DNA of 61,440 nt, counting the filler. It is 6 parts of 6 records of this genome, joined end to end, with 100 filler letters (N's around TTAATTAATTAA, not from the genome) between each part and the next. Parts side by side here need not be neighbours in the genome. Positions count along the whole stretch, not along the records: positions 52,887 to 61,440 come from SRR31156797_2670; 5 more parts are not named here. One strand, written 5' to 3'. The notes under the pieces are model-generated. The model did no database searches and had not been told where the DNA came from. It was given only the letters and a program-made list of their open reading frames with translations. Position numbers and translations under genes: made by a program. Positions 45,169-61,440 of the stretch are shown here, in pieces; within the stretch, counting starts at the first letter, position 1; every line of letters starts with the position of its first letter.

Positions 45169-47274
45169 TGTGCTTTAGTTGAAAAGCTAAAAAAGATATA
45201 CCAAACCGTTGAACTTTCAGTCCCGCTGAAAGCTTTAATGGGCGTTTTAATTACGCAACTTTCATCTATTTGCTGTTCAGCAAAAAAATTAGAAGTGCTG
45301 CTTGAGGAAATCAACAAGCGGAAAGAAAACATCATCGTCCGTCTCAAACTTCGGAAGTTTGTTGAGAAATACCCCGGATTAGAACATAAAGCCGGTGTTG
45401 AACCAGGTGGCACTTTCTTTTTAATTTATCTGAATAAATCGGTAGTTAGTGAAAAAGAGTTATTACAAAAAGAAGAAACGATAAAAGAAAATACAAGTGA
45501 TTATTTTGCTTCAGAAATTCGCTCTATCCGAAATATTGCTGATAATATTGAAAAAGTTACTGATGATGCCATTTCCATTCGAGAACTTGCATTAAATGAC
45601 AAAAAAGAAAGTCTGTTAAAGACTGATATTCTGGAACGATCGGTAAAAATTACTGAATTGCCAAATAATACAGTTGTTGCCGATTTCTCACTTCCTTATT
45701 TATGCTGTTCCGACTGTTCTCCTATTAATTTTATAGTAGAAAAACCGCCTGTTTCATTGCGATTAAACAGTGATCATTATTGTTTGGGAAAAGATACCGA
45801 ACCACTGAGTTTTGTAGTTTCTACGGCAAACGGAACAATAAAAGCAAATCCGGAAGTTGAAGGAATGACCATCGACGGAACAAAACTAAAATTTGATGCC
45901 GCACTATTTCCAAATCAAATGCTGGGCGAGATTATCCGTTTTACAGTTAACGAGCAGGTTACAACTTGTGAAGTTGTGGTATTTCGTGCCATTCAGTTCG
46001 ATTTCGATGTGCCTGAATCACCAACAACCAAAACTGAAATTACATTTGTTCCCACAGGAAACCTCGATGGAGCTACTTTCCTTTGGAGTTTTGGCGACGA
46101 TAATTTATCTACAGAACGAAATCCAACACATAAATACATTTTACCTGTAAACGATGAAAATAAGGTAACGGTTTCGCTTACCGTAACTGCACCAAATGGA
46201 GTTTGTCAGACCACTGTAACACACGATATAATGTTTGTTATGGAAGAAACCAAAATTAGTTTAGCGGACGATAATTTCTGTGAAAACGATAAAAATGAAT
46301 ATCCGTTTATTATTACACCGGCCGGAGCAATTGCTAAAATTGAAGGCGATGGTGTAGAACCTACCGATTCTGATGGATTTGTTTTTATTCCCGCAAATGC
46401 AGGAGCCGGAAGTTATGAGTTTATTCTCGACGGAGTTGCTTCGGGGGTAAAAGCTACAGTGCATAAAGCTCCTGTGGCTGCTTTTGATGCAAAACAGATT
46501 GGAAATCAACTAATTCTTACCAATACATCAACAAATGCAAAAAGTTATATCTGGTTTGTAAATGGCGAAAAACTGGAACGCGACGACAATAATCCGGTAA
46601 CCATAGAATTAACTCCAAACAGTCCTAACGAATGGAAAATACAACTCCGCGCATTAAGTGAATTTTGTGGTATAAAAACTACAAAAGAAATAATAGTAAA
46701 TACAAAATTTATTGAAGAACCGGTAGTCGATAATTGTTTGGAAGAAACAAAAGCATTAATACTTACTGATTTCAGAATTTTAAGAGAACTGGATTTGCCA
46801 GATTCCGAATGGGTGCATCCAACCTGGCTAAAAACAGCTGAATTATTTGGTGGAACAACCGATTTTAAAAATGGTGTTCTGAACGATATCGACAAATATC
46901 TTTCGGGTGTGAATAATGGTAATTTAATTATGTTGTTCGAGAAATTGTTGAGTGAAACCGTTAGAAAACTGCTTACAATTAACAGAATTGAAAACAAACG
47001 TGAATTTACAAACCTGCTTAGTTTATTCATATTACAGCTGCAATTATTCTATAATATTTTGGGTTGTCAGAATGCTGAAATACTAAAAGAATTTACAGAC
47101 CCGATAAACCAACTCTTTAAATTGATTTTAGTATTGCTTCGAAACCTGAAAGAAAAAGAGATTAAAATGCCCGATAGTTTAAGGGAATTTATTTCAAAAT
47201 ATCCTGAAAAAGTAAGTGATATAAATGTAATTATGGAACATCTTTCTTTAATTAAAGAGGAAAATCTGATTTAA
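45169..47274 (+). CDS. eCIS-associated large protein with PKD/Ig-like repeats (5' truncated; candidate fibre/receptor-binding subunit)
   Basis: Frame open from contig start; PGLEHKAGV..GGTF and VVADFSLPYLCC motifs; PKD motif FLWSFGD...STERNPTHKY; upstream of the tape-measure gene. Confidence 0.7.
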   Translation, partial: CALVEKLKKIYQTVELSVPLKALMGVLITQLSSICCSAKKLEVLLEEINKRKENIIVRLKLRKFVEKYPGLEHKAGVEPGGTFFLIYLNKSVVSEKELLQKEETIKENTSDYFASEIRSIRNIADNIEKVTDDAISIRELALNDKKESLLKTDILERSVKITELPNNTVVADFSLPYLCCSDCSPINFIVEKPPVSLRLNSDHYCLGKDTEPLSFVVSTANGTIKANPEVEGMTIDGTKLKFDAALFPNQMLGEIIRFTVNEQVTTCEVVVFRAIQFDFDVPESPTTKTEITFVPTGNLDGATFLWSFGDDNLSTERNPTHKYILPVNDENKVTVSLTVTAPNGVCQTTVTHDIMFVMEETKISLADDNFCENDKNEYPFIITPAGAIAKIEGDGVEPTDSDGFVFIPANAGAGSYEFILDGVASGVKATVHKAPVAAFDAKQIGNQLILTNTSTNAKSYIWFVNGEKLERDDNNPVTIELTPNSPNEWKIQLRALSEFCGIKTTKEIIVNTKFIEEPVVDNCLEETKALILTDFRILRELDLPDSEWVHPTWLKTAELFGGTTDFKNGVLNDIDKYLSGVNNGNLIMLFEKLLSETVRKLLTINRIENKREFTNLLSLFILQLQLFYNILGCQNAEILKEFTDPINQLFKLILVLLRNLKEKEIKMPDSLREFISKYPEKVSDINVIMEHLSLIKEENLI

Positions 47275-47275
47275 A

Positions 47276-48811
47276 TTGAACGATAAAAAACACATAATTG
47301 AAAAGGTACTGGTTGATGTAAATACCAATAATTTGGAAACAGCCAATTCAATCAAAAACAATATCGATGTATTTTTGAAAGATGAAGTTTTTCCAAAAAT
47401 TGAAGAATTGCTTGATAAATATAGTTCGCAGCAGTCTGTTATACGTTTTAATAAAATTGAAATTGTATTAAAGGCAGTGCAGGAAACGAAAAACTTAATT
47501 CGGTATAAATTTGAGATACTAAAACAATTCGAAGAACAGCTTAAAAATATAGAAAGTAATAGCTTACTTTCTGAAGATTCCATTTTTTTACAACAAAAGG
47601 ATAAAAAATTCCGTAACATAATCTCCAGAGAAAATTATGAGGATATATTTCTGTTTTTTATTAAAAATGGTTTTTATCCCTGGTTTGGCAGTAATCGGCA
47701 GATTAAAGAATTTACTGAAAATGAAATCTGGAAAGAAAGTTTTAATGATAAAATATTTATTCAAAAATTAGAAAAAATTGTACTGGAGAATAAGAGGGCT
47801 ATTCAGCGGTTTGTGTATCAGTTTCCTTTATTGATTTATACCTTTTTAGCCCAAATTAATTTGAGATTGAATGAAGCAATAACACACATTCAAGTAAATA
47901 AAGATTTGTTTCATCCTCTAACTGAAACAAAATTTCTGAGTGTCCTCTTTTTTATTTCAGTAGAAAAAAGCAATACAAAGATTATTTCTGAAATTGAAAC
48001 CTGGTTGAATTATATTGAAAAAAATAATAATAGTGAGAATCAAATTTCTATTTCAGAATTAAACAAAATACTGTTAAAAATAATCCCTGAAGAGTTGATA
48101 AATACTACAGCTTTTCACGATCCGCTCAATCGCCTTTTATCTTTTGTGAAAAACGATAATACGTTTTCAGTAAAAACCATTAAAAACGATTTTACTGAAA
48201 AGGATTTAATAGAAAATTCGCATGACTTTTTTAGCCAAAACAGTATTATAGAAGAAAATAAAAAAGCTCAAGATCAGGAATTAGCAGAAGAATCTTTTTT
48301 TGATGAAACTATTAATGAAATCAGGATTGAAAATGCCGGACTAGTAATTGTTCATCCATTTCTCAACCATTTTTTTTCGATTTTAAAAATTGTAAATAAA
48401 GAAAGTATTATAAAACCTGAAAAGAAAGATTTGGCTGTTCAGGTATTACATTATCTGGCAACCGGCGAAGAGAATGCATTTGAAGGTGACTTGGTTTTTG
48501 AGAAATTTTTATGTGGAGTTCCATTAACAATGCCAATAGTTAAAAAATCGATTTTGGATGATGAAACTAAAAGGGAAGCTGATAATTTATTATCAGAAGT
48601 GATAAAAAACTGGCCGGCTTTAAAAAATACATCGCCAGTGGGGTTGCAACAAATGTTTTTGCAACGGAACGGAAAACTGATTTTTGAAAACGAAAAATAC
48701 AAATGTATTGTGGAGCGAAAAGCTCAAGATGTTTTACTTGAAAAACTGAACTGGAATATTTCCTTTATAAAATTACCCTGGCATAAAGAGTTGTTACAGA
48801 TTGAATGGTAG
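47276..48811 (+). CDS. Contractile injection system tape-measure protein (Afp14-like)
   Basis: C-terminal block NAGLVIVHPFL...KFLCG...WPALKNTS..GL...FLQRNGKL...DVLLEKLNW..IKLPW. Confidence 0.8.
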   Translation: MNDKKHIIEKVLVDVNTNNLETANSIKNNIDVFLKDEVFPKIEELLDKYSSQQSVIRFNKIEIVLKAVQETKNLIRYKFEILKQFEEQLKNIESNSLLSEDSIFLQQKDKKFRNIISRENYEDIFLFFIKNGFYPWFGSNRQIKEFTENEIWKESFNDKIFIQKLEKIVLENKRAIQRFVYQFPLLIYTFLAQINLRLNEAITHIQVNKDLFHPLTETKFLSVLFFISVEKSNTKIISEIETWLNYIEKNNNSENQISISELNKILLKIIPEELINTTAFHDPLNRLLSFVKNDNTFSVKTIKNDFTEKDLIENSHDFFSQNSIIEENKKAQDQELAEESFFDETINEIRIENAGLVIVHPFLNHFFSILKIVNKESIIKPEKKDLAVQVLHYLATGEENAFEGDLVFEKFLCGVPLTMPIVKKSILDDETKREADNLLSEVIKNWPALKNTSPVGLQQMFLQRNGKLIFENEKYKCIVERKAQDVLLEKLNWNISFIKLPWHKELLQIEW

Positions 48812-48816
48812 AAACT

Positions 48817-50955
48817 ATGAAAACAAAATTAAACAAACCGACAAACAATAAAGGGAGCACTTCTTTTTTTACAAATCAAAACAGTTCCTCTTTTATTACG
48901 ACCCAGCCAAAATTAAAGGTTGGCGAGCAGGGTGATAAATTTGAAACTGAAGCCGATCGGGTAGCCGAAAGTGTGTTAAGTCAACCTTTATCCCAAAATA
49001 AACCCTTTTTCTCACCCGCAAATTCTTCACTTCAAAATCAATCGTCAGTTGGAATACAAGAAAAACCAGTTGCCGAATCCGTTACACCTATACTTCAAAA
49101 ACAACCAATGGAAGAAGAGGAGGAGATGATTCAACCCCAGGCAATGGAAGAAGAGGAAGAAATGATTCAAACTCAGCCAGTAGAAGAAGAGGAAGAAGAA
49201 TTGATGCCAAAAGCGGAGCAGGAAATTAAAGAACCAGCGATTGCGGTTGAGAATAAAATAAGGGAATCAAAAGGAAATGGAAATTCACTGGAAAGCAATA
49301 CGCGACTTCAGATGGAAAGTAGTTTTGGTGCCGATTTTAGTGGCGTAAAAATACATACCGGAGAAAATTCGATTCAATTAAACAGAGAATTAAAATCGCA
49401 TGCTTTTACTACCGGGAATGATATATTTTTTAATGAAGGGAAATATCGCCCGGAGACAACTAATGGTAAACGTTTACTGGCACACGAATTAACGCATACC
49501 ATTCAACAGGGAACTAGTTTAGCAAATTCAGAGCAACATATTCAACGTTGGCCATGGACAAGAAGTATTGAAGAACAAAAAAGGGATTTTCGTAGTCGGA
49601 ATTACGGTCCAATGACATATACAACACCTGCAACCTCGGGTTCGGGTTTTGAAGCGAGTTACTGGCCAATGTCAAGCCGGCTGAATATTACAGTCAGGGC
49701 AAAATTACGATTTGCCGATACACTTTCCGGAAGTATTGGTTCTTTGGCGTCGCCAAATATTTTTATGAATCAATCGAGTTTTATTACAACAATTAATAAT
49801 TTGCCTGCCGATGTTCAAACCCGTATTTTACCTTACTTCCAATGGACCGATGAACAGAAACAGATTCATTTGTTGCGGTTCAGACAAAATCTGGAAGTAG
49901 TGCGGCAAATGTGGCAGGGAACAGGCATGTCTTTTCAGGTTAATGAAACAGGGTGGGAAGATATTACAGCTACACCGAATATTAGGTTTACCGTTGGTGA
50001 AGGAGATGCTATCCATCAAACGCGAAGGGGTGGTTTCTTAAATTTATTTACTGTAACCGATGAAGCGGCCAGTGATCATTTACAAATAGAAATTGTAAAA
50101 CAACTTACCAACCAGGAAGCAGATGAAATTATAGCAATTATTACAGCTCATAATGCCGCTACAGGTGCAACAGTCGACCGGGGGTCTATTCAGGCAACAC
50201 GCTCATATATGCATAACGATCCCGGAAGCAGGGGATCTGCTCCCCAGGGATTTAATAATATTATGTCGATGGAGAGTAATCTGGTTGGCGATCCAAGAAG
50301 ACGAATTTATGCTACCGATGTATATTTTGGTCATAATCAAAGCGATTTGTCTGCTGAGGCCACCACACAGTTGGATAGCTTCTTTAGCGATCCGATGATT
50401 TTACTCGATAACGGAGAAAATGCTGTTAATGTTAATTTAAGTGGTTTTGCTTCTGCACCGGGATCAACAGCATATAACCGATCGCTGGTTGAAAGTCGAA
50501 TAAATTCTGTTCAGAATTATGTCGATAACCATTTAATGAACACAGAACTGACAACAAATATTTACACCAGTAATAATACAAACGATTCAGACACAAGTGC
50601 TGAGGCCGATTTAGCAGCAAATCCGGGAACTCATGATCCTTCGGATTTCAGAAGAGTTGAAATTACAATTATACGTGAGGGAAGGGGAGGACAGAATACG
50701 CTGGCTCACGAAATGGGACATGTTTTCGGGCTTGGTGATGAGTACGCCGAAGTAGGTGGAATGTATAATCGTCCGGCCGGCACAGCTGCAACACACGACC
50801 CGCTGGCCCGAAATGCAGGAATTTCAGGAGGCGCAACAGTAGCCGATGATCAGAGAATGATGTCGCAGGGAAACGTAATTGGCGGTGCACATTATTCCAC
50901 GTTTGCCGATGCATTAAATCAATTAACTTCAAAAAGATGGAATATAATAACTTAG
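48817..50955 (+). CDS. DUF4157 (eCIS core domain) protein with OmpA-like domain and HExxH metallopeptidase toxin domain
   Basis: QPKL.V...GD.FE.EADRVA; MESSFGADFSGVKIHT...LLAHELTHTIQQ; OmpA-like VYF...GFAS..G...YN..L...R...RRVEI; AHEMGHVFGLGDEY; alternative start at 48805. Confidence 0.85.
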   Translation: MKTKLNKPTNNKGSTSFFTNQNSSSFITTQPKLKVGEQGDKFETEADRVAESVLSQPLSQNKPFFSPANSSLQNQSSVGIQEKPVAESVTPILQKQPMEEEEEMIQPQAMEEEEEMIQTQPVEEEEEELMPKAEQEIKEPAIAVENKIRESKGNGNSLESNTRLQMESSFGADFSGVKIHTGENSIQLNRELKSHAFTTGNDIFFNEGKYRPETTNGKRLLAHELTHTIQQGTSLANSEQHIQRWPWTRSIEEQKRDFRSRNYGPMTYTTPATSGSGFEASYWPMSSRLNITVRAKLRFADTLSGSIGSLASPNIFMNQSSFITTINNLPADVQTRILPYFQWTDEQKQIHLLRFRQNLEVVRQMWQGTGMSFQVNETGWEDITATPNIRFTVGEGDAIHQTRRGGFLNLFTVTDEAASDHLQIEIVKQLTNQEADEIIAIITAHNAATGATVDRGSIQATRSYMHNDPGSRGSAPQGFNNIMSMESNLVGDPRRRIYATDVYFGHNQSDLSAEATTQLDSFFSDPMILLDNGENAVNVNLSGFASAPGSTAYNRSLVESRINSVQNYVDNHLMNTELTTNIYTSNNTNDSDTSAEADLAANPGTHDPSDFRRVEITIIREGRGGQNTLAHEMGHVFGLGDEYAEVGGMYNRPAGTAATHDPLARNAGISGGATVADDQRMMSQGNVIGGAHYSTFADALNQLTSKRWNIIT
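49102..49209 (+). repeat. Intragenic 36-bp tandem repeat, three copies
   Basis: Encodes QPMEEEEEMIQP / QAMEEEEEMIQT / QPVEEEEEELMP. Confidence 0.85.
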
Positions 50956-50992
50956 TAGTATCTTTAATTTACATAACCGATATACATTCATA

Positions 50993-51439
50993 ATGAATCA
51001 ATTAATTCAAAATACAGAAGGTTTAAAGACTGAACATCAGAATAAAACACCATTATTTGAGAAAAGTTATTTTCCTCCCGATTATGGTGCAAAACAGGTT
51101 TCCAGATTGTACGACGATGGTAGTTTGTATTTTTTTATATTAAGTAATAAATCGAAAAATACAAATGAAGACGCAGGGAAATGGGGATATATTTCAACTG
51201 TTAAAGATTCAGGCATTCAAAAAATAAAAGAAATATTAAAAAACTCATTCAATCTTGTAAACGATAAACTTGATGGTGGAAATGTAAAAGGAATAGTGGT
51301 TTGGAGAATACCTTTTAAAAATGAAGTAAAAGAAATTGTAACAACCATTATTCCCGAAAGTAAGCACGTAATTTTTAACGAAATAGGAAATATAGTTAAT
51401 GCCAATCTAAATCCTATTCCTTCTGATAAGGAAAAATAA
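50993..51439 (+). CDS. Hypothetical protein, candidate immunity protein or chaperone
   Basis: 148 aa with no recognised motif, directly after the DUF4157 toxin gene. Confidence 0.55.
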   Translation: MNQLIQNTEGLKTEHQNKTPLFEKSYFPPDYGAKQVSRLYDDGSLYFFILSNKSKNTNEDAGKWGYISTVKDSGIQKIKEILKNSFNLVNDKLDGGNVKGIVVWRIPFKNEVKEIVTTIIPESKHVIFNEIGNIVNANLNPIPSDKEK

Positions 51440-52886: not shown

Positions 52887-52906
52887 AATTCATGAATTGC
52901 CCCTAC
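52887..52906. repeat. Partial copy of a GTAG-type palindromic repeat at the contig edge
   Basis: AATTCATGAATTGCCCCTAC, identical to 58905-58924. Confidence 0.75.
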
Positions 52907-52935
52907 ATACCCTGTTTAGCATATTGAATTTGATT

Positions 52936-53880
52936 TTAATTTACTCTCACACCTGAATACTCTTCTTCGATAGTAGTTCTGTACTCAGTTGGACTTAATC
53001 CCTGTAGTTTTTTGAAAAATTTACCAAAATAACTAGGGTCATCAAATCCTAGTTTATATGCAATCTCTTTAACGGAATCATCAGAGTTAAGCAGCATATT
53101 TTTTGCTCTGTCCATTACATAATCATTAATATACTCTTTTGTATTTCGTCCTGTTTCTTTTCTCAGCATATCGCTCAAATAGTTAGGAGAGAGGCACATT
53201 TCGGCTGCACACTCTTTTACACTTGGTATTCCTTTTAGTTCTAATTCATCAGAATAAATTCTGGAATTTAGGAAATCTTTGAATTTTTCAACAGTATCTT
53301 TATTCATATTCTCTCTGGTAATAAATTGCCTACCATAAAACCTTTCACTGTAGTTAAATAAAAGTTCCAGACTAAGATTTATTAAGCTGTGGCTATGAGT
53401 ATCAATATTTGAATTAAATTCAGTTACGATTTCATCTTTTAATCTATTTATGATCTCCTTTTCTTTATCAGAGAGATGAAGTGCTTCATTTGCATCATAA
53501 GTAAGAAAAGTATAGTTTTTGATTTTACTTCCCAATGAACTTCTCCTAATTAGATCAGGGTGAAAATATAAGCCCCATCCATCTAACTCTTGATCAGGAT
53601 CGATGTTTTCCATGGTCATTATTTGATTAGGTTCCATGAAATTTAAGACACCACTTGAGAAGTCATAGTGCTTTCTCCCATAGGTCATGTCACCAACACA
53701 TTTTGTTTTAAATAAAATCCCATATAGATTCATAATAACTTTAAAAGATTCCATCTCTTTAGCAAATTTTACTTTTGTAAAGTCTATGATTGAAATTAAT
53801 GGATGTCTTACCTCTCCATAATCTAATGCTTTGTGCAACTCCTCTATTGTACTAATCTCTATTTTAACTTTTTTACTCAT
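52936..53880 (-). CDS. AraC family transcriptional regulator
   Basis: C-terminal double HTH LSPNYLSDML...IAYKLGFDDPSYFGKFFKK; start at MSKKV after GAGGTG. Confidence 0.92.
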   Translation of the reverse strand: MSKKVKIEISTIEELHKALDYGEVRHPLISIIDFTKVKFAKEMESFKVIMNLYGILFKTKCVGDMTYGRKHYDFSSGVLNFMEPNQIMTMENIDPDQELDGWGLYFHPDLIRRSSLGSKIKNYTFLTYDANEALHLSDKEKEIINRLKDEIVTEFNSNIDTHSHSLINLSLELLFNYSERFYGRQFITRENMNKDTVEKFKDFLNSRIYSDELELKGIPSVKECAAEMCLSPNYLSDMLRKETGRNTKEYINDYVMDRAKNMLLNSDDSVKEIAYKLGFDDPSYFGKFFKKLQGLSPTEYRTTIEEEYSGVRVN

Positions 53881-53921
53881 TGAGCACCTCACATTCAATA
53901 TAAAATCTATATATATAAATT

Positions 53922-55124
53922 TTACGATTTTCTTTTTCTAACACCCAAAACTAATTTCATAATCCAAATTAACGGCTTAAACATAAAACTTTCCATATCT
54001 TTCTGGACTTTATTAAGTTCCTGAGGAATGGCGATATTTTGCGGACATTTTTTGACACAGATCCCGCAATTTACACATTGTGATGCAAGAGAGGCTTCAG
54101 TTGTAATTCCACCGTTCATAAATGCATACATCATTTTAGCACCTTTATCACCAAAAGTGTGAAAAGAATTATACTGCTCAAAACATAGCGGGATATTTAC
54201 TCCCTTTGGGCATGGCATACAGTATTGGCAGCTGGTACAGCCAACCCGCATTACTTTTCGGAAAGTATCAGCAGCTTCATCAACTAACCTTACCTCTCCC
54301 TCTGTAAGTGAGTCAGGAAGGGCCTCAGAGGCAATCTTCATATTTTCCTCTACGTGTTCATCTACATTCATTCCAGATAACACAACTGCTACTTCAGGAT
54401 GATTCCACAGCCATCTTAATGACCATTCAGCAGGTGTTCTTTTGATTTCGGATCTATTCCAAATTGCTTGAACCTCTTTTGGAGGAGTTTTAGCTAAATT
54501 TCCACCTCTTAGAGGCTCCATTATAATTACAGAGATATCTTTTGAAGCAGCATATTTTAATCCGGCTGTTCCCGCTTGGTTATTTGTGTCCAGATAGTTA
54601 TATTGGATTTGGCAAAATACCCAGTCATAATCATCAACTATTTTGCTAAAATCTTCAGCTGCCCCATGGAAAGAAAAACCGGCATTCTTAATTTTACCAC
54701 TTTTTAATGCATCGTCCAAAAATTCGATGACACCTTTCTTTTTACATTTTTCCCAGCTATCTCCACTTAGAGCATGAATCAGATAATAATCAATATAGTC
54801 TGTTTGAAGTTTTGCAAGTTGCTCGTCTAATATTTTATCCATATCAGCTTTTGAACTAGTCGACCAATGTGGTAATTTAGTTGCAATTTTTACTTTATCT
54901 CTATATCCGTTTTTAGATAAGGCTTTACCTAAAAAAGATTCACTTTTTCCATTATGATACGGATAAGCTGTATCAATATAGTTTATACCCTTATCAATTG
55001 CAGAGTATAATTGTTTTGATGCAAGTTCCTCATTAATACCTGTCCCTTTAGTAGGAAATCTCATAGCACCATAACCTAAAACTGATAATTTGTCGCCATT
55101 CTTTTTAATTTCTCTGTATTGCAA
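53922..55124 (-). CDS. Aldo/keto reductase with C-terminal [4Fe-4S] domain
   Basis: LGYGAMR, DTAYPYH, IATK, MEPLRGG, CTSCQYCMPCP and CVNCGICVKKCP; TTG start after GGGGG. Confidence 0.9.
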   Translation of the reverse strand: MQYREIKKNGDKLSVLGYGAMRFPTKGTGINEELASKQLYSAIDKGINYIDTAYPYHNGKSESFLGKALSKNGYRDKVKIATKLPHWSTSSKADMDKILDEQLAKLQTDYIDYYLIHALSGDSWEKCKKKGVIEFLDDALKSGKIKNAGFSFHGAAEDFSKIVDDYDWVFCQIQYNYLDTNNQAGTAGLKYAASKDISVIIMEPLRGGNLAKTPPKEVQAIWNRSEIKRTPAEWSLRWLWNHPEVAVVLSGMNVDEHVEENMKIASEALPDSLTEGEVRLVDEAADTFRKVMRVGCTSCQYCMPCPKGVNIPLCFEQYNSFHTFGDKGAKMMYAFMNGGITTEASLASQCVNCGICVKKCPQNIAIPQELNKVQKDMESFMFKPLIWIMKLVLGVRKRKS

Positions 55125-55260
55125 AATAATCCCCCCTATATTAATTATAAAAAAAGTTCCTATACAATCTTTACTAAAAATTATTGATTTTCATTTAATA
55201 ATATAGATTTTTTTCTCAAATATATTATATATCAATATTAAAAAAAGTAGAATGGACATA

Positions 55261-55289
55261 TTACTGATTGAGAGGTAATTTTTACTGAT
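55261..55289 (-). promoter_or_regulatory. Direct repeat, putative AraC binding site
   Basis: TTACTGAT at 55261 and 55282 (21-bp period) upstream of the reductase-araC pair. Confidence 0.5.
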
Positions 55290-55376
55290 ACAAGAAAAGT
55301 CTTTGGATCAAAAAAATTAAAAGTAACCGAAGCTCTTTCTAAAACTTGCAAGTTTATACTTTCCCAATGCATAAAA

Positions 55377-55406
55377 AAACTCACAAGTAAAAACTACCTG
55401 TGAGTT
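55377..55406 (-). terminator. 30-bp hairpin, copy 1 (terminator of the DUF2589 module)
   Basis: AAACTCACAAGTAAAAACTACCTGTGAGTT with a T-run on the minus strand. Confidence 0.75.
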
Positions 55407-55436
55407 AATCTTTATTATTATTTTAGATAATTCAAG

Positions 55437-55985
55437 TTAAAATGGAAATGTTCTTATTATTTGATCATTTATCCTTGCAACAGCCTCCGGTGCATCACCA
55501 TTTTCAAATTCAATTTTGATTTTGGCCATAGTGCTGTTTTTTGGAGAATTTCTAGTGTTTTTAAAATCAACCATTAGTGGTCCTTGATGATTTTCACTTA
55601 ATTTTTGTTCATTACTCTGTTCTTTCTTTTTGATGATGTTAGCAAAATTAAACCCTTTTTTCTTTGGTTCAATTTCTTCGAAACCTGAAATCTGAGCATC
55701 AAAAGAAATTTTCATATTTTTTATTTTCATTGATGTTGGAGGGGTTATTGAGATTACAGGTATTTCAAATTCAGAGTAGTTTATTTTGCCGTCTTCTCCA
55801 ACATGCGGCAATTTAATCGGCAAAGTTTTAGGTTTTCCGAAATTCTCTTTTGTTGTTTCTTCATTTGATTCATCTAGATAAAAATATCTATTAAGCATTC
55901 TTATGTGTTGTTGTTCTGTAAGTTTTTGAGCTTCAATTATTGAATTATGCATTGCTTTTAGAAGATTGTCTAAATTTACACTCAT
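55437..55985 (-). CDS. DUF2589 family protein (second paralogue)
   Basis: LDNLLKAMHNSIIEAQ, IPVISITP, KIKIEF..GDAPEAVARI; start at MSVNL after AAGGAG. Confidence 0.72.
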   Translation of the reverse strand: MSVNLDNLLKAMHNSIIEAQKLTEQQHIRMLNRYFYLDESNEETTKENFGKPKTLPIKLPHVGEDGKINYSEFEIPVISITPPTSMKIKNMKISFDAQISGFEEIEPKKKGFNFANIIKKKEQSNEQKLSENHQGPLMVDFKNTRNSPKNSTMAKIKIEFENGDAPEAVARINDQIIRTFPF

Positions 55986-56038
55986 TTGGCTTCTCCTTAA
56001 AAATTTAGTGATCATTCGAATCTAACATATGTGTTTTA

Positions 56039-56314
56039 CTATAACCAAAATGGTTTTCTTGAAAAGCCTATATGGTATGTAGTTACCTGCATTGTTATTT
56101 GATGTTCTCCAATTTGATAAACAGCAAAACCAACATCTTTTCCGATTATTTTTCCTTTTGGTGATTCATTCAAACATCTGTTTAAAAGATCCATCTGTTC
56201 ATCTTTTTTTTCATTTGACATTGGGTTATTAGGATTTAAATTACCAATTTCAATTCTTTTGACAAATGTAACATCTGATAAAGGAAAAGTTTTATTTTGA
56301 CTTTGATTAAACAT
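56039..56314 (-). CDS. Small hypothetical protein between the DUF2589 genes
   Basis: 91 aa, AAAGGA RBS, co-oriented with 22-nt and 53-nt gaps to its neighbours. Confidence 0.75.
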   Translation of the reverse strand: MFNQSQNKTFPLSDVTFVKRIEIGNLNPNNPMSNEKKDEQMDLLNRCLNESPKGKIIGKDVGFAVYQIGEHQITMQVTTYHIGFSRKPFWL

Positions 56315-56336
56315 GTTAATCCTTTCTTATGGTAAA

Positions 56337-56975
56337 TTAATGATTCTCTCCATTTGTTGTATCAGTAGTAGTTTGATCTGTATTTCCAGTATTTATTTGC
56401 TGAGTAGCAGGAGCTTTCGCTTCACCAACAGATTTTGGTGCAACAGCTTGATTCATCATATCGAGAACTCTTGCTAAGCCCTCCGGCATACCATGGTCAG
56501 TAGCTTTAACTTGTACATGATATTTAGCTGATTTATCAGTTGATCTTGTGTGTTCTTTGTGCGCAGAGATACTACCTTTTACACTTACAGAAGCACTAAA
56601 TGGACCTACTCCGACTTTTGCTTTTCCTGAAATCCCAATGTCTGTATCTTTTTTCTCAACAGATTTTTCAGATGATTTAATTTCCATATCAAAAGTGATG
56701 TCAACTAAATCAACTTTTAAACTTGGAATTTGAACAACTGAAAGTAAAGGTACTTCAATATCAACTTTTTCCTGCATAATAGCTCCATCATTTCCCACAA
56801 CAGGTCTATTAAATGAGAAGTCAGCTGTTCTAACTTTGTCACCTTCAAAACCAACTGTTTTAATAAAATCAGCAGTTGATTTTGCCAGATTAACATTTGC
56901 CTCACTAGCTGCTTTTAACGGTGCTCCGATAAGATCTTGCATTGGTAATCCCTGAAATTCTTGTCCTAATGCCAT
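56337..56975 (-). CDS. DUF2589 family protein (first paralogue, with long Ser/Gly beta-hairpin)
   Basis: FQGLPMQDLIGAPLKAA, VPLLSVVQIPSL, FDMEIKS, TRSTDKSAKYHV, PEGLARVLD; GAGGA RBS. Confidence 0.82.
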   Translation of the reverse strand: MALGQEFQGLPMQDLIGAPLKAASEANVNLAKSTADFIKTVGFEGDKVRTADFSFNRPVVGNDGAIMQEKVDIEVPLLSVVQIPSLKVDLVDITFDMEIKSSEKSVEKKDTDIGISGKAKVGVGPFSASVSVKGSISAHKEHTRSTDKSAKYHVQVKATDHGMPEGLARVLDMMNQAVAPKSVGEAKAPATQQINTGNTDQTTTDTTNGENH

Positions 56976-57320
56976 AATTATCCTCTCCTTTTGTCTGTTA
57001 TATCAAACTCAGTAATATATAGTATATTAGAGTTAAAAATAAAAATTAAATTAATCGTAATTGGTTTATTTCTTCTAAAATAAAAAAATATGAGAAAAGT
57101 AAGTTGTAGTGTGAAAATGTTTTTTATGAGAATTGAATTTCTAGAATACAATATATACATTTTAGTATACATAAAACCTGGTGTCAAACTATTTTTAGCC
57201 AAAAAAGCTGATATTGAGAAAAGTGGTGTTAAAGTAATTTTTTAATTAGCTGAAATTAGAAAAAAGGTGAAAAAAGCACTGAAAAATAGCAAAAATAAGA
57301 AAAAATAAAACTAAAAAAAT

Positions 57321-57350
57321 AAACTCACAAGTAAAAACTACTTGTGAGTT
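57321..57350 (-). terminator. 30-bp hairpin, copy 2 (terminator of the DUF1294 gene)
   Basis: AAACTCACAAGTAAAAACTACTTGTGAGTT; 29/30 identical to 55377-55406. Confidence 0.75.
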
Positions 57351-57355
57351 TAAAA

Positions 57356-57637
57356 TTACCGAGATAATATCCCGTTTCCAAATTCAAAAATTAAATAATT
57401 TCCAAATAATAAGATTGGTAAACTTAACCAAAAATACCATTTTCTGATTTTGTGTCTAAAAGCAATCATGGCAATTAAGCCACCCAAAGCTCCCATATAA
57501 ATCATAGTTAATAATAATACTGCTTCCGGAATTCTAGCTTTCCCGCGTTTTGCCTGCACTTTATCCAGTGAGAAAACAGCAAATGAAATTATACTCATAA
57601 TTCCCCAAACAATAAAAAGTAATCTAGTATTTGTCAT
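57356..57637 (-). CDS. DUF1294 family membrane protein
   Basis: DK..A......RIPE..L...GALG....M..FRHK motif. Confidence 0.85.
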   Translation of the reverse strand: MTNTRLLFIVWGIMSIISFAVFSLDKVQAKRGKARIPEAVLLLTMIYMGALGGLIAMIAFRHKIRKWYFWLSLPILLFGNYLIFEFGNGILSR

Positions 57638-57942
57638 TAAAGCACCTCTTTAAAATAATTTTTCTTTACTTTTTCTAAGATTATTACGATATTATATATG
57701 ATATACTAAAGCTATTTTATCTTAGTTTAACTAAAACTGCAAGAGGTGTTTATATAAGTATTTTATAAAAATTGATAATAAACACAGGGAATTATTGCTT
57801 TTTTCAGATAATTTATATATAATGTATGGGTAACTTGATAAATATAAAATAAATAAATTAAACTATAACTTTATAGTTAGAAATTTGAGGAAGTGTATGA
57901 AATAAAAAATATTTATTTCATAAATTTAAGGAGGATATTATT

Positions 57943-58851
57943 ATGAAAAAACTGGCCTTATTACTGGCAGGATTAGCAATTTTTAACCTATCTTTTTCAG
58001 CGGTAGAAAATATTGAAACAGGAAATGTTTATCTATTCGGAGATGGTGGAGACGCAAAAAATCTAGAAGCAAGAGATGATGAAGAAGGTTTAGGATTAGA
58101 TGAATTTGATATTCCATCAAATCAGAATCAAAACGGAAATGGAAATGATAGAGCTCAAGATAAATTCCAAATCGGTGTATCAATGATTTTAGGAAGTAAA
58201 GAGTACGAAGGTGACGATGCGCAATTTACATTTATGCCATTATTTGATATTCAATATAACGGAGTATATATTGATAAAACAATAGCAGGAATTAGAATTC
58301 TTGAAAGAGAGGATCTGACATTCGCTCTATTAGGTGAGTACAATATGATGGGATATGACGCTAACAAATTAACTGGAGATTATGCTACTGCTTTAAGTGA
58401 TACTGAAAATGAACTGCATGCAGGTTTTGGTATTGAGTTTAAGCCGGTTAATGCATCTGATATTCAGATTGACTTTAGATTAACGAGAGATTTCTCAAGT
58501 AAGAGTAATGGTTTCAAACTTCACATAGAGGGAGAAAGAAGCATCAGATACTCGCAAGAGATCGAAGTTGAACCAAGCGTATACTACACACTTTTAAGTC
58601 AGGATATGATCAATTATTACTACGGAATTACTAGTGCACAAGCATCAGGATATGACGTAAATACTTATTCAGCTGATAGTGCAGGATATGTTATTGGTGT
58701 AGGTTTAGATTTTGATTATCACTTAAGTCCGTCAGTAGTACTTAAATCATTCAATAAATTAGAGATGCTTTCAAGTGAAATTGTATCAAGTCCGCTTGTT
58801 CAAAATTCATTTAACTTAGAGATCGGTGCAGGATTCGTACTTGCATTATAA
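57943..58851 (+). CDS. MipA/OmpV family outer-membrane protein
   Basis: Signal peptide, YEG......P, YYYGI, I.SSPLV; GGAGG RBS. Confidence 0.75.
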   Translation: MKKLALLLAGLAIFNLSFSAVENIETGNVYLFGDGGDAKNLEARDDEEGLGLDEFDIPSNQNQNGNGNDRAQDKFQIGVSMILGSKEYEGDDAQFTFMPLFDIQYNGVYIDKTIAGIRILEREDLTFALLGEYNMMGYDANKLTGDYATALSDTENELHAGFGIEFKPVNASDIQIDFRLTRDFSSKSNGFKLHIEGERSIRYSQEIEVEPSVYYTLLSQDMINYYYGITSAQASGYDVNTYSADSAGYVIGVGLDFDYHLSPSVVLKSFNKLEMLSSEIVSSPLVQNSFNLEIGAGFVLAL

Positions 58852-58873
58852 TTTCGAATAATAATTTAAATAA

Positions 58874-60430
<1,557 letters not shown>

Positions 60431-60577
60431 CTATTTTTACTTGAAAAGAAGTAGAATAAGTCTTAATGATCAGCTTGAATTCTTCTAAAATATATATTAA
60501 AATAGAATATCATAAAATAAAATTATAAAAAAGTAGTCAAGTTAAGTAAGGTTAAATTATTTTCATACGGAGGAAAA

Positions 60578-61408
60578 ATGAGTTATTTTTTTAGAACGAA
60601 TGATTTTGAATTAGATAAATATGATATAGAGATAGAATGCCAGCCAAAATTTACTAAATCAGAGAGAGAGCTTTTTAATTATTTACTTGAGATTTCTAAA
60701 TGGGGAGAGGAATATACGGAAATTGATCTAATATCTCTTAGAGAGCGATTTGATGATTCTAGAAGACTTGCTTTTAAATTATCCAAAAAGCTAATAACTT
60801 GTTATATTAAAAATAAAAATAATAAAAGATCAGAAATTAGTTTTAGTATCTTTGATTTTATAATTTTTGAAGATCATAAATTTATATTTAATTTTTCAAA
60901 TGAAATCAAAAAATCTAAAAATTTTGGAAATTTTTATTCCAGAATAAATATAATTGGAATTTTACAGTTTAAACTGTTATATACTAAAAAAATATTTAAA
61001 ATATTTTTAAAACATCATGAAAAAAAAGGTGTGATCTATTATAGCTTAGATAAATTAAAAAAACTATTAGATATTGATTTAGAAAATTACAGTAGATTTT
61101 ATAATTTGGAGAATAAAGTCCTGAATCCAATAGTAAAAGATTTAGAAAATGCGGGAATAACTCTTTGGTTTGAAAAGGTAAAGAACTCTCCAGCAAAAAC
61201 GTCACGCGTAACAGGAGTAAAAATACATTATGTTAATCAACCGATTTCACGAATACACAATGATACTAATGAAATAATTAAAAAATATAGAGATGAAATT
61301 AAAGATTTTGCAAAAGCATATGAGTTAATTTATAATTTCAAAAAATTTAATACTTATGATGATACAATAGATTATGTTGAGAAAAACAAGGTTGATATAT
61401 TTGATTAA
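60578..61408 (+). CDS. Rep_3/RepB-like winged-helix replication-initiation family protein
   Basis: FK..YT..IF..., SLDKLKKLL....YSRFYNLENKVLNP..KDL, K....RVTGVKI patterns; GGAGG RBS. Confidence 0.65.
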   Translation: MSYFFRTNDFELDKYDIEIECQPKFTKSERELFNYLLEISKWGEEYTEIDLISLRERFDDSRRLAFKLSKKLITCYIKNKNNKRSEISFSIFDFIIFEDHKFIFNFSNEIKKSKNFGNFYSRINIIGILQFKLLYTKKIFKIFLKHHEKKGVIYYSLDKLKKLLDIDLENYSRFYNLENKVLNPIVKDLENAGITLWFEKVKNSPAKTSRVTGVKIHYVNQPISRIHNDTNEIIKKYRDEIKDFAKAYELIYNFKKFNTYDDTIDYVEKNKVDIFD

Positions 61409-61440
61409 AAACTATAATGATTGTCTAAATCTAAAGCACA

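Follow-up and report, generated by a model that had tools for sequence, protein, structure and literature searches.

The stretch of DNA analysed here (the window: 61,440 nt, six joined parts, adjoining ones of which may not be neighbours in the genome) carries, within the part at positions 52,887-61,440 (SRR31156797_2670), a cassette of three genes that we call A, s and B. A and B encode members of the DUF2589 family (DUF, domain of unknown function) and s, which lies between them, encodes a small protein. The features of the cassette are:

56975-56337, minus strand: gene A, 212 aa, DUF2589, strongly conserved; its C-terminal tail is variable and of low complexity
56568-56639, minus strand: residues 113-136 of A, a conserved amphipathic segment resembling a beta-hairpin, with a G-W/V-G-P-F tip
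56314-56039, minus strand: gene s, 91 aa, no described family, C-terminal signature YH(V/I)GFxR(K/R)P
55985-55437, minus strand: gene B, 182 aa from MSVNL, a divergent DUF2589 paralogue without the hairpin
55406-55378, minus strand: hairpin and T-run resembling an intrinsic terminator, 31 nt past B, at the operon end
57187-57159, minus strand: best sigma-70-like match upstream of A, TTGACA-17-TAAAAT, 11 of 12 positions
55373-55406, minus strand: 34-nt hairpin element, copy 1, overlapping the terminator after B
57317-57350, minus strand: 34-nt hairpin element, copy 2, 94% identical to copy 1, at the end of the upstream DUF1294 gene

The original prediction had described a compact operon with a ribosome binding site (RBS) for each gene, a terminator of its own and an AT-rich upstream region, and all of these were confirmed. 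RBS-like sequences (AAGGAGAGG for A, AAAGGA for s and AAGGAGA for B) lie ahead of the three ATG codons, the gaps between the genes are 22 nt (A/s) and 53 nt (s/B), and the GC content upstream of A is 0.26-0.30. The longest open reading frame (ORF) for B starts at 56015 with no RBS-like sequence preceding it, and close homologues of B start at the same MS/GLNLDN as the 55985 start. The sigma-70-like match upstream of A is weak evidence for a promoter because such sites are equally frequent in shuffled sequence (11 promoter-like sites upstream against a shuffle mean of 11.0). The two copies of the 34-nt hairpin element, in direct orientation and 1944 nt apart, flank the cassette; no further copy was found in the window and none in 100 shuffles, and the pair may be the trace of an insertion of the cassette.

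A profile of A found 473 relatives in contigs drawn from one genome per species, and the best 80 loci were kept; ORFs were called in these and in the window (81 sources in all) and searched with profiles of A, s and B. The small protein s was present in 79 of the 81 sources and in 79 of 79 that were testable, the two misses (L003 and L013) being cut by a contig edge right after A. B was present in 78 of the 81 and in 78 of 78 testable sources, its three misses (L003, L052 and L070) being cut where B would be expected; 68 of the B proteins are of the common type, and the other 10 form a Vibrio type, likewise DUF2589 by Pfam. A, s and B are thus a real conserved unit of which s is an obligate third component; the original prediction had counted the small protein as part of a three-gene module. 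According to the record titles the trio spans at least nine phyla (Fusobacteriota, Spirochaetota, Campylobacterota, Pseudomonadota, Myxococcota, Desulfobacterota, Bacteroidota, Bacillota and Acidobacteriota) and its order varies: A-s-B in Fusobacteriaceae, Arcobacteraceae, Mariprofundus and Flavobacteriia, B-A-s in Pseudomonas, sphingomonads, Luteibacter, vibrios and Selenomonadaceae, and A-B-s in Myxococcales. A third and more distant DUF2589-like paralogue, C, follows s in 15 loci (hhalign probability 97.5%, E 5.9e-12 against the B profile). In Pseudomonas-type operons s is followed by a 102-aa protein (c8), which was considered as a further paralogue and rejected, as it is not detectably DUF2589-like (hhalign 7.5%). 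The Vibrio-type loci L006-L008, L011, L021 (from Aliivibrio fischeri ES114), L028, L029, L031 and L047 have a long A of 283-317 aa, and in these nine loci it is a gene for a Mor-family activator, not a hydrolase, that adjoins the cassette.

Both A and B match Pfam DUF2589 (PF11655) far above its gathering cut-off of 23 bits (A: 154.3 bits, E 4.1e-45; B: 79.2 bits, E 5.7e-22), a family that has no assigned function and whose obligate partner s lies outside Pfam, NCBIfam and PHROG. NCBIfam gave no family beyond DUF2589 for either protein, neither Pfam nor NCBIfam gave a toxin family or an aerolysin/ETX_MTX2 match, PHROGs gave no meaningful match and no lysis family for A, s or B, and in the ESM Atlas A matched solely clusters of DUF2589, and s clusters without a name. 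In the open full-text literature (subscription journals lay outside the search), DUF2589 has two passing mentions, one as an entry of an expression table and one in a sentence about genes up-regulated in Archaeoglobus, and the accession PF11655 has none. That A and B are paralogues, and that an alternating, Ser-rich hairpin is confined to A, had both been proposed from the sequence of the window, and both proposals held. A and B find each other by BLASTP (E 2e-7) and by profile-profile comparison (hhalign 98.2%, E 2.7e-14 over 165 columns). Constraint within the trio is unequal, A being strongly conserved and B diverging fast: compared with the window proteins, the 46 A sequences, which include relatives from other phyla, are 48-76% identical, the 78 s sequences 34-77% and the 77 B sequences 13-67%. 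Throughout the 46 aligned A proteins positions 113, 115, 117, 119 and 121 are hydrophobic or small, the turn is G122-W/V123-G124-P125 followed by F126, and positions 126, 128, 130, 132 and 136 are hydrophobic with Ser, Lys, Glu or Thr in between. Near-invariant motifs, ITFDMEVK and HKENTRSTDxSAKYHV, flank this hairpin, whereas B has a variable, unalignable linker at the same position. A Kyte-Doolittle scan flagged no transmembrane (TM) segment in the window copies of A, s or B, none of which has a hydrophobic stretch of 19 residues, and none of the three has an N-terminal hydrophobic segment or a lipobox (signal peptides here and below were judged only by reading N-termini).

Structure prediction was less informative. 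AlphaFold2 monomers built with these alignments were weak (mean predicted local distance difference test score, pLDDT, of 59 for A and 65 for B), and pLDDT fell below 50 across residues 103-146 of A, that is, in the hairpin region. The weak models are alpha/beta, with two long helices and four to six strands, and A and B share in them an order of elements of long helix, three strands, low-confidence insert, strand and helix. From these models Foldseek gave nothing usable against the PDB (E no better than 1.8 with A and 1.9 with B), and VIA wide, an exhaustive aligner, reached a best Z of 4.3 for A (for the N-terminal helix alone) and 3.7 for B. Sequence and profile searches of the PDB gave no match for A, for the B profile, for the s profile or for the 275-aa fusion protein P0230 described below; the B sequence on its own gave one chance-level match (E 1.4). 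A complex prediction for A(1-185), B and s, with s as the partner and alignments unused, gave an ipSAE of 0.00 in both runs, which is evidence for neither side. The earlier idea of A as a beta-barrel or tube with B as its cap is therefore neither borne out nor refuted by models of this quality, which matched no known fold.

The small protein has no Pfam match above the cut-off and none in NCBIfam or PHROGs. Its profile (78 sequences), when run against 1.84 billion representative sequences, gave 122 matches at E<=1e-3, 85 of them at E<=1e-10, and judged from these s is a compact family. The invariant positions of s are G24, N45, G54, Y80, H81, G83 and R86. A zinc ribbon was considered for s and rejected because its single Cys varies. 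The most telling of the relatives of s is P0158 (363 aa), the representative of a cluster of 14 proteins, among them some from Massilia timonae that their source names GH19. Residues 5-86 of P0158 are an s domain (46% identical to s of the window, E 2e-28), an Ala/Pro-rich linker follows, and residues 148-360 match, at 58% identity (E 3e-89), the GH19 protein encoded on its own after the cassette in Massilia sp. CF038; the Pfam GH19 score of P0158 is slightly below the cut-off. None of the roles first proposed for the small protein (chaperone, inhibitor or trigger) emerged from the analysis; the s-GH19 fusion, as a domain arrangement, suggests that s serves a wall hydrolase as a coupling or adaptor domain. 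The s domain is further found duplicated in tandem and at the C-terminus of proteins of 254-277 aa (P0228, P0230, P0233, P0237, P0239 and P0223), whose 190-aa N-terminal domain belongs to no Pfam family and has no sequence match in the PDB. P0234, a truncated C-terminus of A joined to s, was not counted as a fusion, being degenerate in appearance and the single member of its cluster. A relaxed search for hidden s-like domains in the neighbouring effectors of the 80 loci found none.

The original prediction had also proposed a survey of the gene neighbourhood for lysozymes, and this was positive. Genes for peptidoglycan-active proteins of eight kinds lie within a few kb of the cassette in 39 of the 80 loci (like the other neighbour counts a lower bound, as explained below), and in 32 of these 39 the hydrolase is in the same-strand gene chain as the trio. 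The kinds are:

GH19: 18 loci
GH108: 8 loci
VgrG3-C-like lysozyme: 4 loci
GH24: 3 loci
PG_binding_1 protein: 3 loci
Amidase_3: 1 locus
VanY: 1 locus
CHAP: 1 locus, that of Roseburia

No signal peptide was seen in the N-termini that were read, which were those of three members each of the GH19, GH108, VgrG3-C-like and PG_binding_1 groups and of single genes for Amidase_3, GH24 and M15_3 (VanY and CHAP were outside this reading), and phage endolysin PHROGs match the GH19, GH108 and PG_binding_1 representatives. Two genome-wide controls addressed how closely these enzymes keep to the cassette. A GH19 match lay inside the locus in five of five genomes (GH19 totals per genome of 2, 2, 1, 8 and 1) and was the sole GH19 of the genome in two of them; in five further genomes, six of seven GH108 matches adjoin a DUF2589 cassette, and in a Luteibacter with two cassettes both GH108 copies lie beside a cassette. 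The cassette is linked specifically to dedicated wall hydrolases that lack an export signal (leaderless hydrolases).

Other genes recur near the relatives. Regulators beside the cassette are of AraC type in 17 loci, are response regulators of LuxR type in nine and are of Mor type in nine; small TM proteins of about 77 aa are recurrent neighbours, as are signal-peptide-bearing proteins of about 130 aa, a protein with three TM segments is present in 10 loci and a leaderless astacin-like peptidase in 10 sphingomonad loci. Three individual loci may be described for their gene content. In a Mariprofundus metagenome-assembled genome (MAG; L005, 7734-10475) the trio is followed by a leaderless Amidase_3 protein and a Tle1-like phospholipase, enzymes of types typical of interbacterial antagonism. 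In the Roseburia MAG (L079, 4369-6575) it is followed by a DUF4231 protein with two TM segments, the CHAP-domain hydrolase and a phage-type integrase. In a Corticimicrobacter MAG (L038, 1060-2085) a gene of the ETX/MTX2 (aerolysin-type) toxin family lies 2.7 kb upstream of the cassette.

In the window itself the cassette is flanked by a gene for a DUF1294 membrane protein on one side and an aldo-keto reductase/AraC pair on the other. The closest relative, in a Fusobacteriaceae MAG (A 75% identical), has the trio between other genes, and this difference, together with the bracketing hairpins, fits a mobile cassette. Relatives of A were found on ten IMG/VR contigs, two with the full trio and eight with A and B without this s. 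On one viral contig (L081) the end of an endolysin gene (phrog_315) is the exact start of B-A-s, and on another (L084) an endolysin gene lies 1.5 kb upstream. A tblastn search of cultured phage records gave one distant, unannotated match (30% identity), and plasmid records gave eight matches. Genes for Rep3 and ParA stand beside the cassette in the Veronia locus (L022), and a plasmid-type Rep3_C replication-initiator domain is encoded at the end of the window (60578-61405, plus strand), where the GC content is about 0.20. The one murein-related gene near the window cassette encodes an outer-membrane protein of the MipA (MltA-interacting protein) family (57943-58848, plus strand) and lies divergently, upstream beyond the DUF1294 gene. 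About 4 kb from the cassette by window positions is a run of genes of extracellular contractile injection system (eCIS) type (45238-51436, plus strand) for a PKD-domain protein, a contractile injection system tape-measure protein (PF19268, E 2e-99), a 716-aa eCIS_core (PF13699) protein and a 148-aa ORF; the scan of window ORFs found no sheath, tube or baseplate gene.

Taking together the conserved trio, the conserved hairpin of A and the link to leaderless hydrolases, the reading that we prefer, and hold tentatively, is that A and B form a cytoplasmic, membrane-active assembly for which s is the adaptor, and that its role is to breach the envelope or to release leaderless hydrolases. A single operon would then encode a cytoplasmic device made entirely of leaderless proteins, with A as its conserved working subunit and B as a fast-evolving paralogous partner. 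A and B would co-assemble; on some trigger the amphipathic hairpin of A would insert into the membrane from the cell interior, and s would couple the assembly to a wall hydrolase that has no export signal. The outcome would be a breach of the envelope for lysis or for protein release in the manner of a holin and endolysin, brought about by unrelated proteins that are not transmembrane. The window holds the core (A, s and B) alone, in this reading a mobile cassette, and any hydrolase partner would have to be encoded elsewhere in the genome. A stronger form of this proposal, which is possible but doubtful, is a mobile machine free of TM helices in which a beta-hairpin is inserted from within and s carries folded leaderless hydrolases, and perhaps other effectors, out of the cell. 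That such a machine would give bacteria, and possibly phages too, a previously unrecognised way of lysing cells or releasing proteins we put forward with the same reserve.

Several observations weigh against the preferred reading. No hydrolase was found near the cassette in 41 of the 80 loci, so that the core can stand alone, and a scan of 56 ORFs found neither a wall hydrolase nor a holin-like gene anywhere in the window. Small TM proteins that are possible holins are encoded in most of the hydrolase-bearing operons, so that A and B need not be what opens the membrane. The idea of the cassette as simply a new holin is weakened both by these TM proteins and by the half of the loci that are core-only. 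Loci with a hydrolase cannot be counted as independent events, since whole operons move as one, and the counts come from a Pfam scan of 365 representatives of neighbour clusters (the greedy set) in which one member per BLAST cluster supplied the family label; a further 276 same-strand cluster representatives were left out of the scan, which is why the neighbour counts are lower bounds. Finally, the monomer models are weak, and neither an oligomer nor an extended hairpin appears in any model.

The possible holins lend themselves to another explanation, in which A and B, perhaps with s, are not the means of release but the cargo: a leaderless two-component toxin that forms pores in, or otherwise damages, the membranes of other cells and that leaves the producer by a lysis-type route resembling the type 10 secretion system. 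The small TM protein and the endolysin-type hydrolase that share an operon with the trio in many relatives, along with the dedicated regulators, would then be the release apparatus, the hairpin of A would be what it resembles, the stem of a beta-pore former, and enzymes of the antagonistic kind are near at hand (EndoU nucleases in 10 loci, patatins in 2 and a Tle1-like lipase in 1). We nevertheless consider this explanation unlikely. Neither A nor B matches a toxin family, the EndoU genes bring signal peptides of their own, the fusion of s to GH19 connects the core directly with the hydrolase and not with some separate step of release, and the pair occurs on viral contigs, where an exported toxin fits less naturally.

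The inequality of constraint within the trio and the poor monomer models could also be read without any membrane. If A were the building block of a non-membrane polymer, tube or shell, its paralogue B playing a minor or nucleating part and s acting as a tag that recruits cargo, much as in gas vesicles or encapsulins, then a very conserved A beside a diverging paralogue is what would be expected where every surface is an assembly interface, and poor monomer models are common for proteins that fold on assembly. The fusion of s to different partners (GH19 and the 190-aa domain), its tandem form and the presence of the third paralogue C in 15 loci would suit such a design as well. Against this, Foldseek and VIA searches with the weak models of A and B found no tube, shell, gas-vesicle or GvpA-type fold, and the link to wall hydrolases without export signals would be left unexplained, so that a polymer of this kind seems to us a still less likely product of the cassette.

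The patchy and mobile distribution of the cassette across phyla, and the restriction-modification genes, STAND NTPase, integrase or DUF4231 protein with two TM segments that stand beside some loci, are also what might be expected of an abortive-infection or other defence module whose pore kills the infected cell from inside, and the original prediction had listed an anti-phage role. However, the defence-system models of PADLOC-DB 2.0 returned no family for A, s or B at E values up to 1, no conserved sensor or enzyme accompanies the trio, and phage-like contigs themselves carry the pair; a defence role is accordingly improbable. Least probable of all is that the trio does not itself act on membranes and serves in the cytoplasm to hold or regulate leaderless hydrolases (storing, inhibiting or timing them), which would suit the s-GH19 fusion and the possible holins in many operons but leaves the conserved amphipathic hairpin and core-only cassettes like that of the window unexplained.

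How leaderless proteins leave bacteria is still a partly open question, as is the way in which phages without recognisable lysis genes open the envelope. Should the preferred reading hold and the A/B assembly breach membranes, it would form a new class beside holins, spanins and gasdermins and would give a function to a whole DUF; a polymer or a toxin in its place would also be new. The window contributes a clean instance of the core by itself and defines the s family, and the cassette, with three genes in about 1.9 kb, is small enough for direct test in a laboratory strain.

Among known systems the aerolysin (ETX/MTX2) toxins offer a counterpart to the hairpin of A. Amphipathic hairpins span membranes in this toxin family, and the amphipathic hairpin of A, about 2 x 10 residues long, is likewise alternating and rich in Ser and Gly; unlike those toxins, A has no match to the family and no signal peptide, is apparently cytoplasmic, and is modelled, weakly, with two long helices. 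Holins are small integral membrane proteins with at least one TM helix, and spanins consist of a type II membrane protein and an outer-membrane lipoprotein (or of a unimolecular form), with a signal sequence or lipobox; A, s and B have the features of neither. With the holin-endolysin cassettes and type 10 secretion the operons of the DUF2589 relatives do share leaderless phage-type hydrolases, small membrane proteins and a dedicated regulator, whereas no TM helix or lipobox is present in A, s or B, none of the three is homologous to holins or spanins, and the window has no gene for a hydrolase or a holin-like protein. Type 10 secretion systems are described as domesticated phage cassettes for holin and endolysin (and in some cases spanin) in Serratia, Salmonella and Yersinia entomophaga (PMC10847048, PMC10109510, PMC9527704). 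The Shewanella LambdaSo lysis protein, which was considered as a further counterpart, is an unrelated 65-aa TM protein. Phage phiKT gp28 is described as a short cationic peptide that disrupts the outer membrane for a phage without spanins (bioRxiv 10.1101/515445). As presented there it is a soluble non-spanin protein proposed to finish the disruption of the envelope after holin and endolysin, and to that extent it resembles what we propose for the trio. The gp28 peptide differs in being unrelated to the DUF2589 trio in sequence and size, and one of the DUF2589 loci comes from the Roseburia MAG. Roseburia has no outer membrane. Bacterial gasdermins, finally, differ from the trio in that there is no homology between them, that no protease gene accompanies the trio and that gasdermins form pores as the product of a single gene; they share with the assembly proposed here the property of being cytoplasmic proteins that make pores in the membrane from inside the cell.

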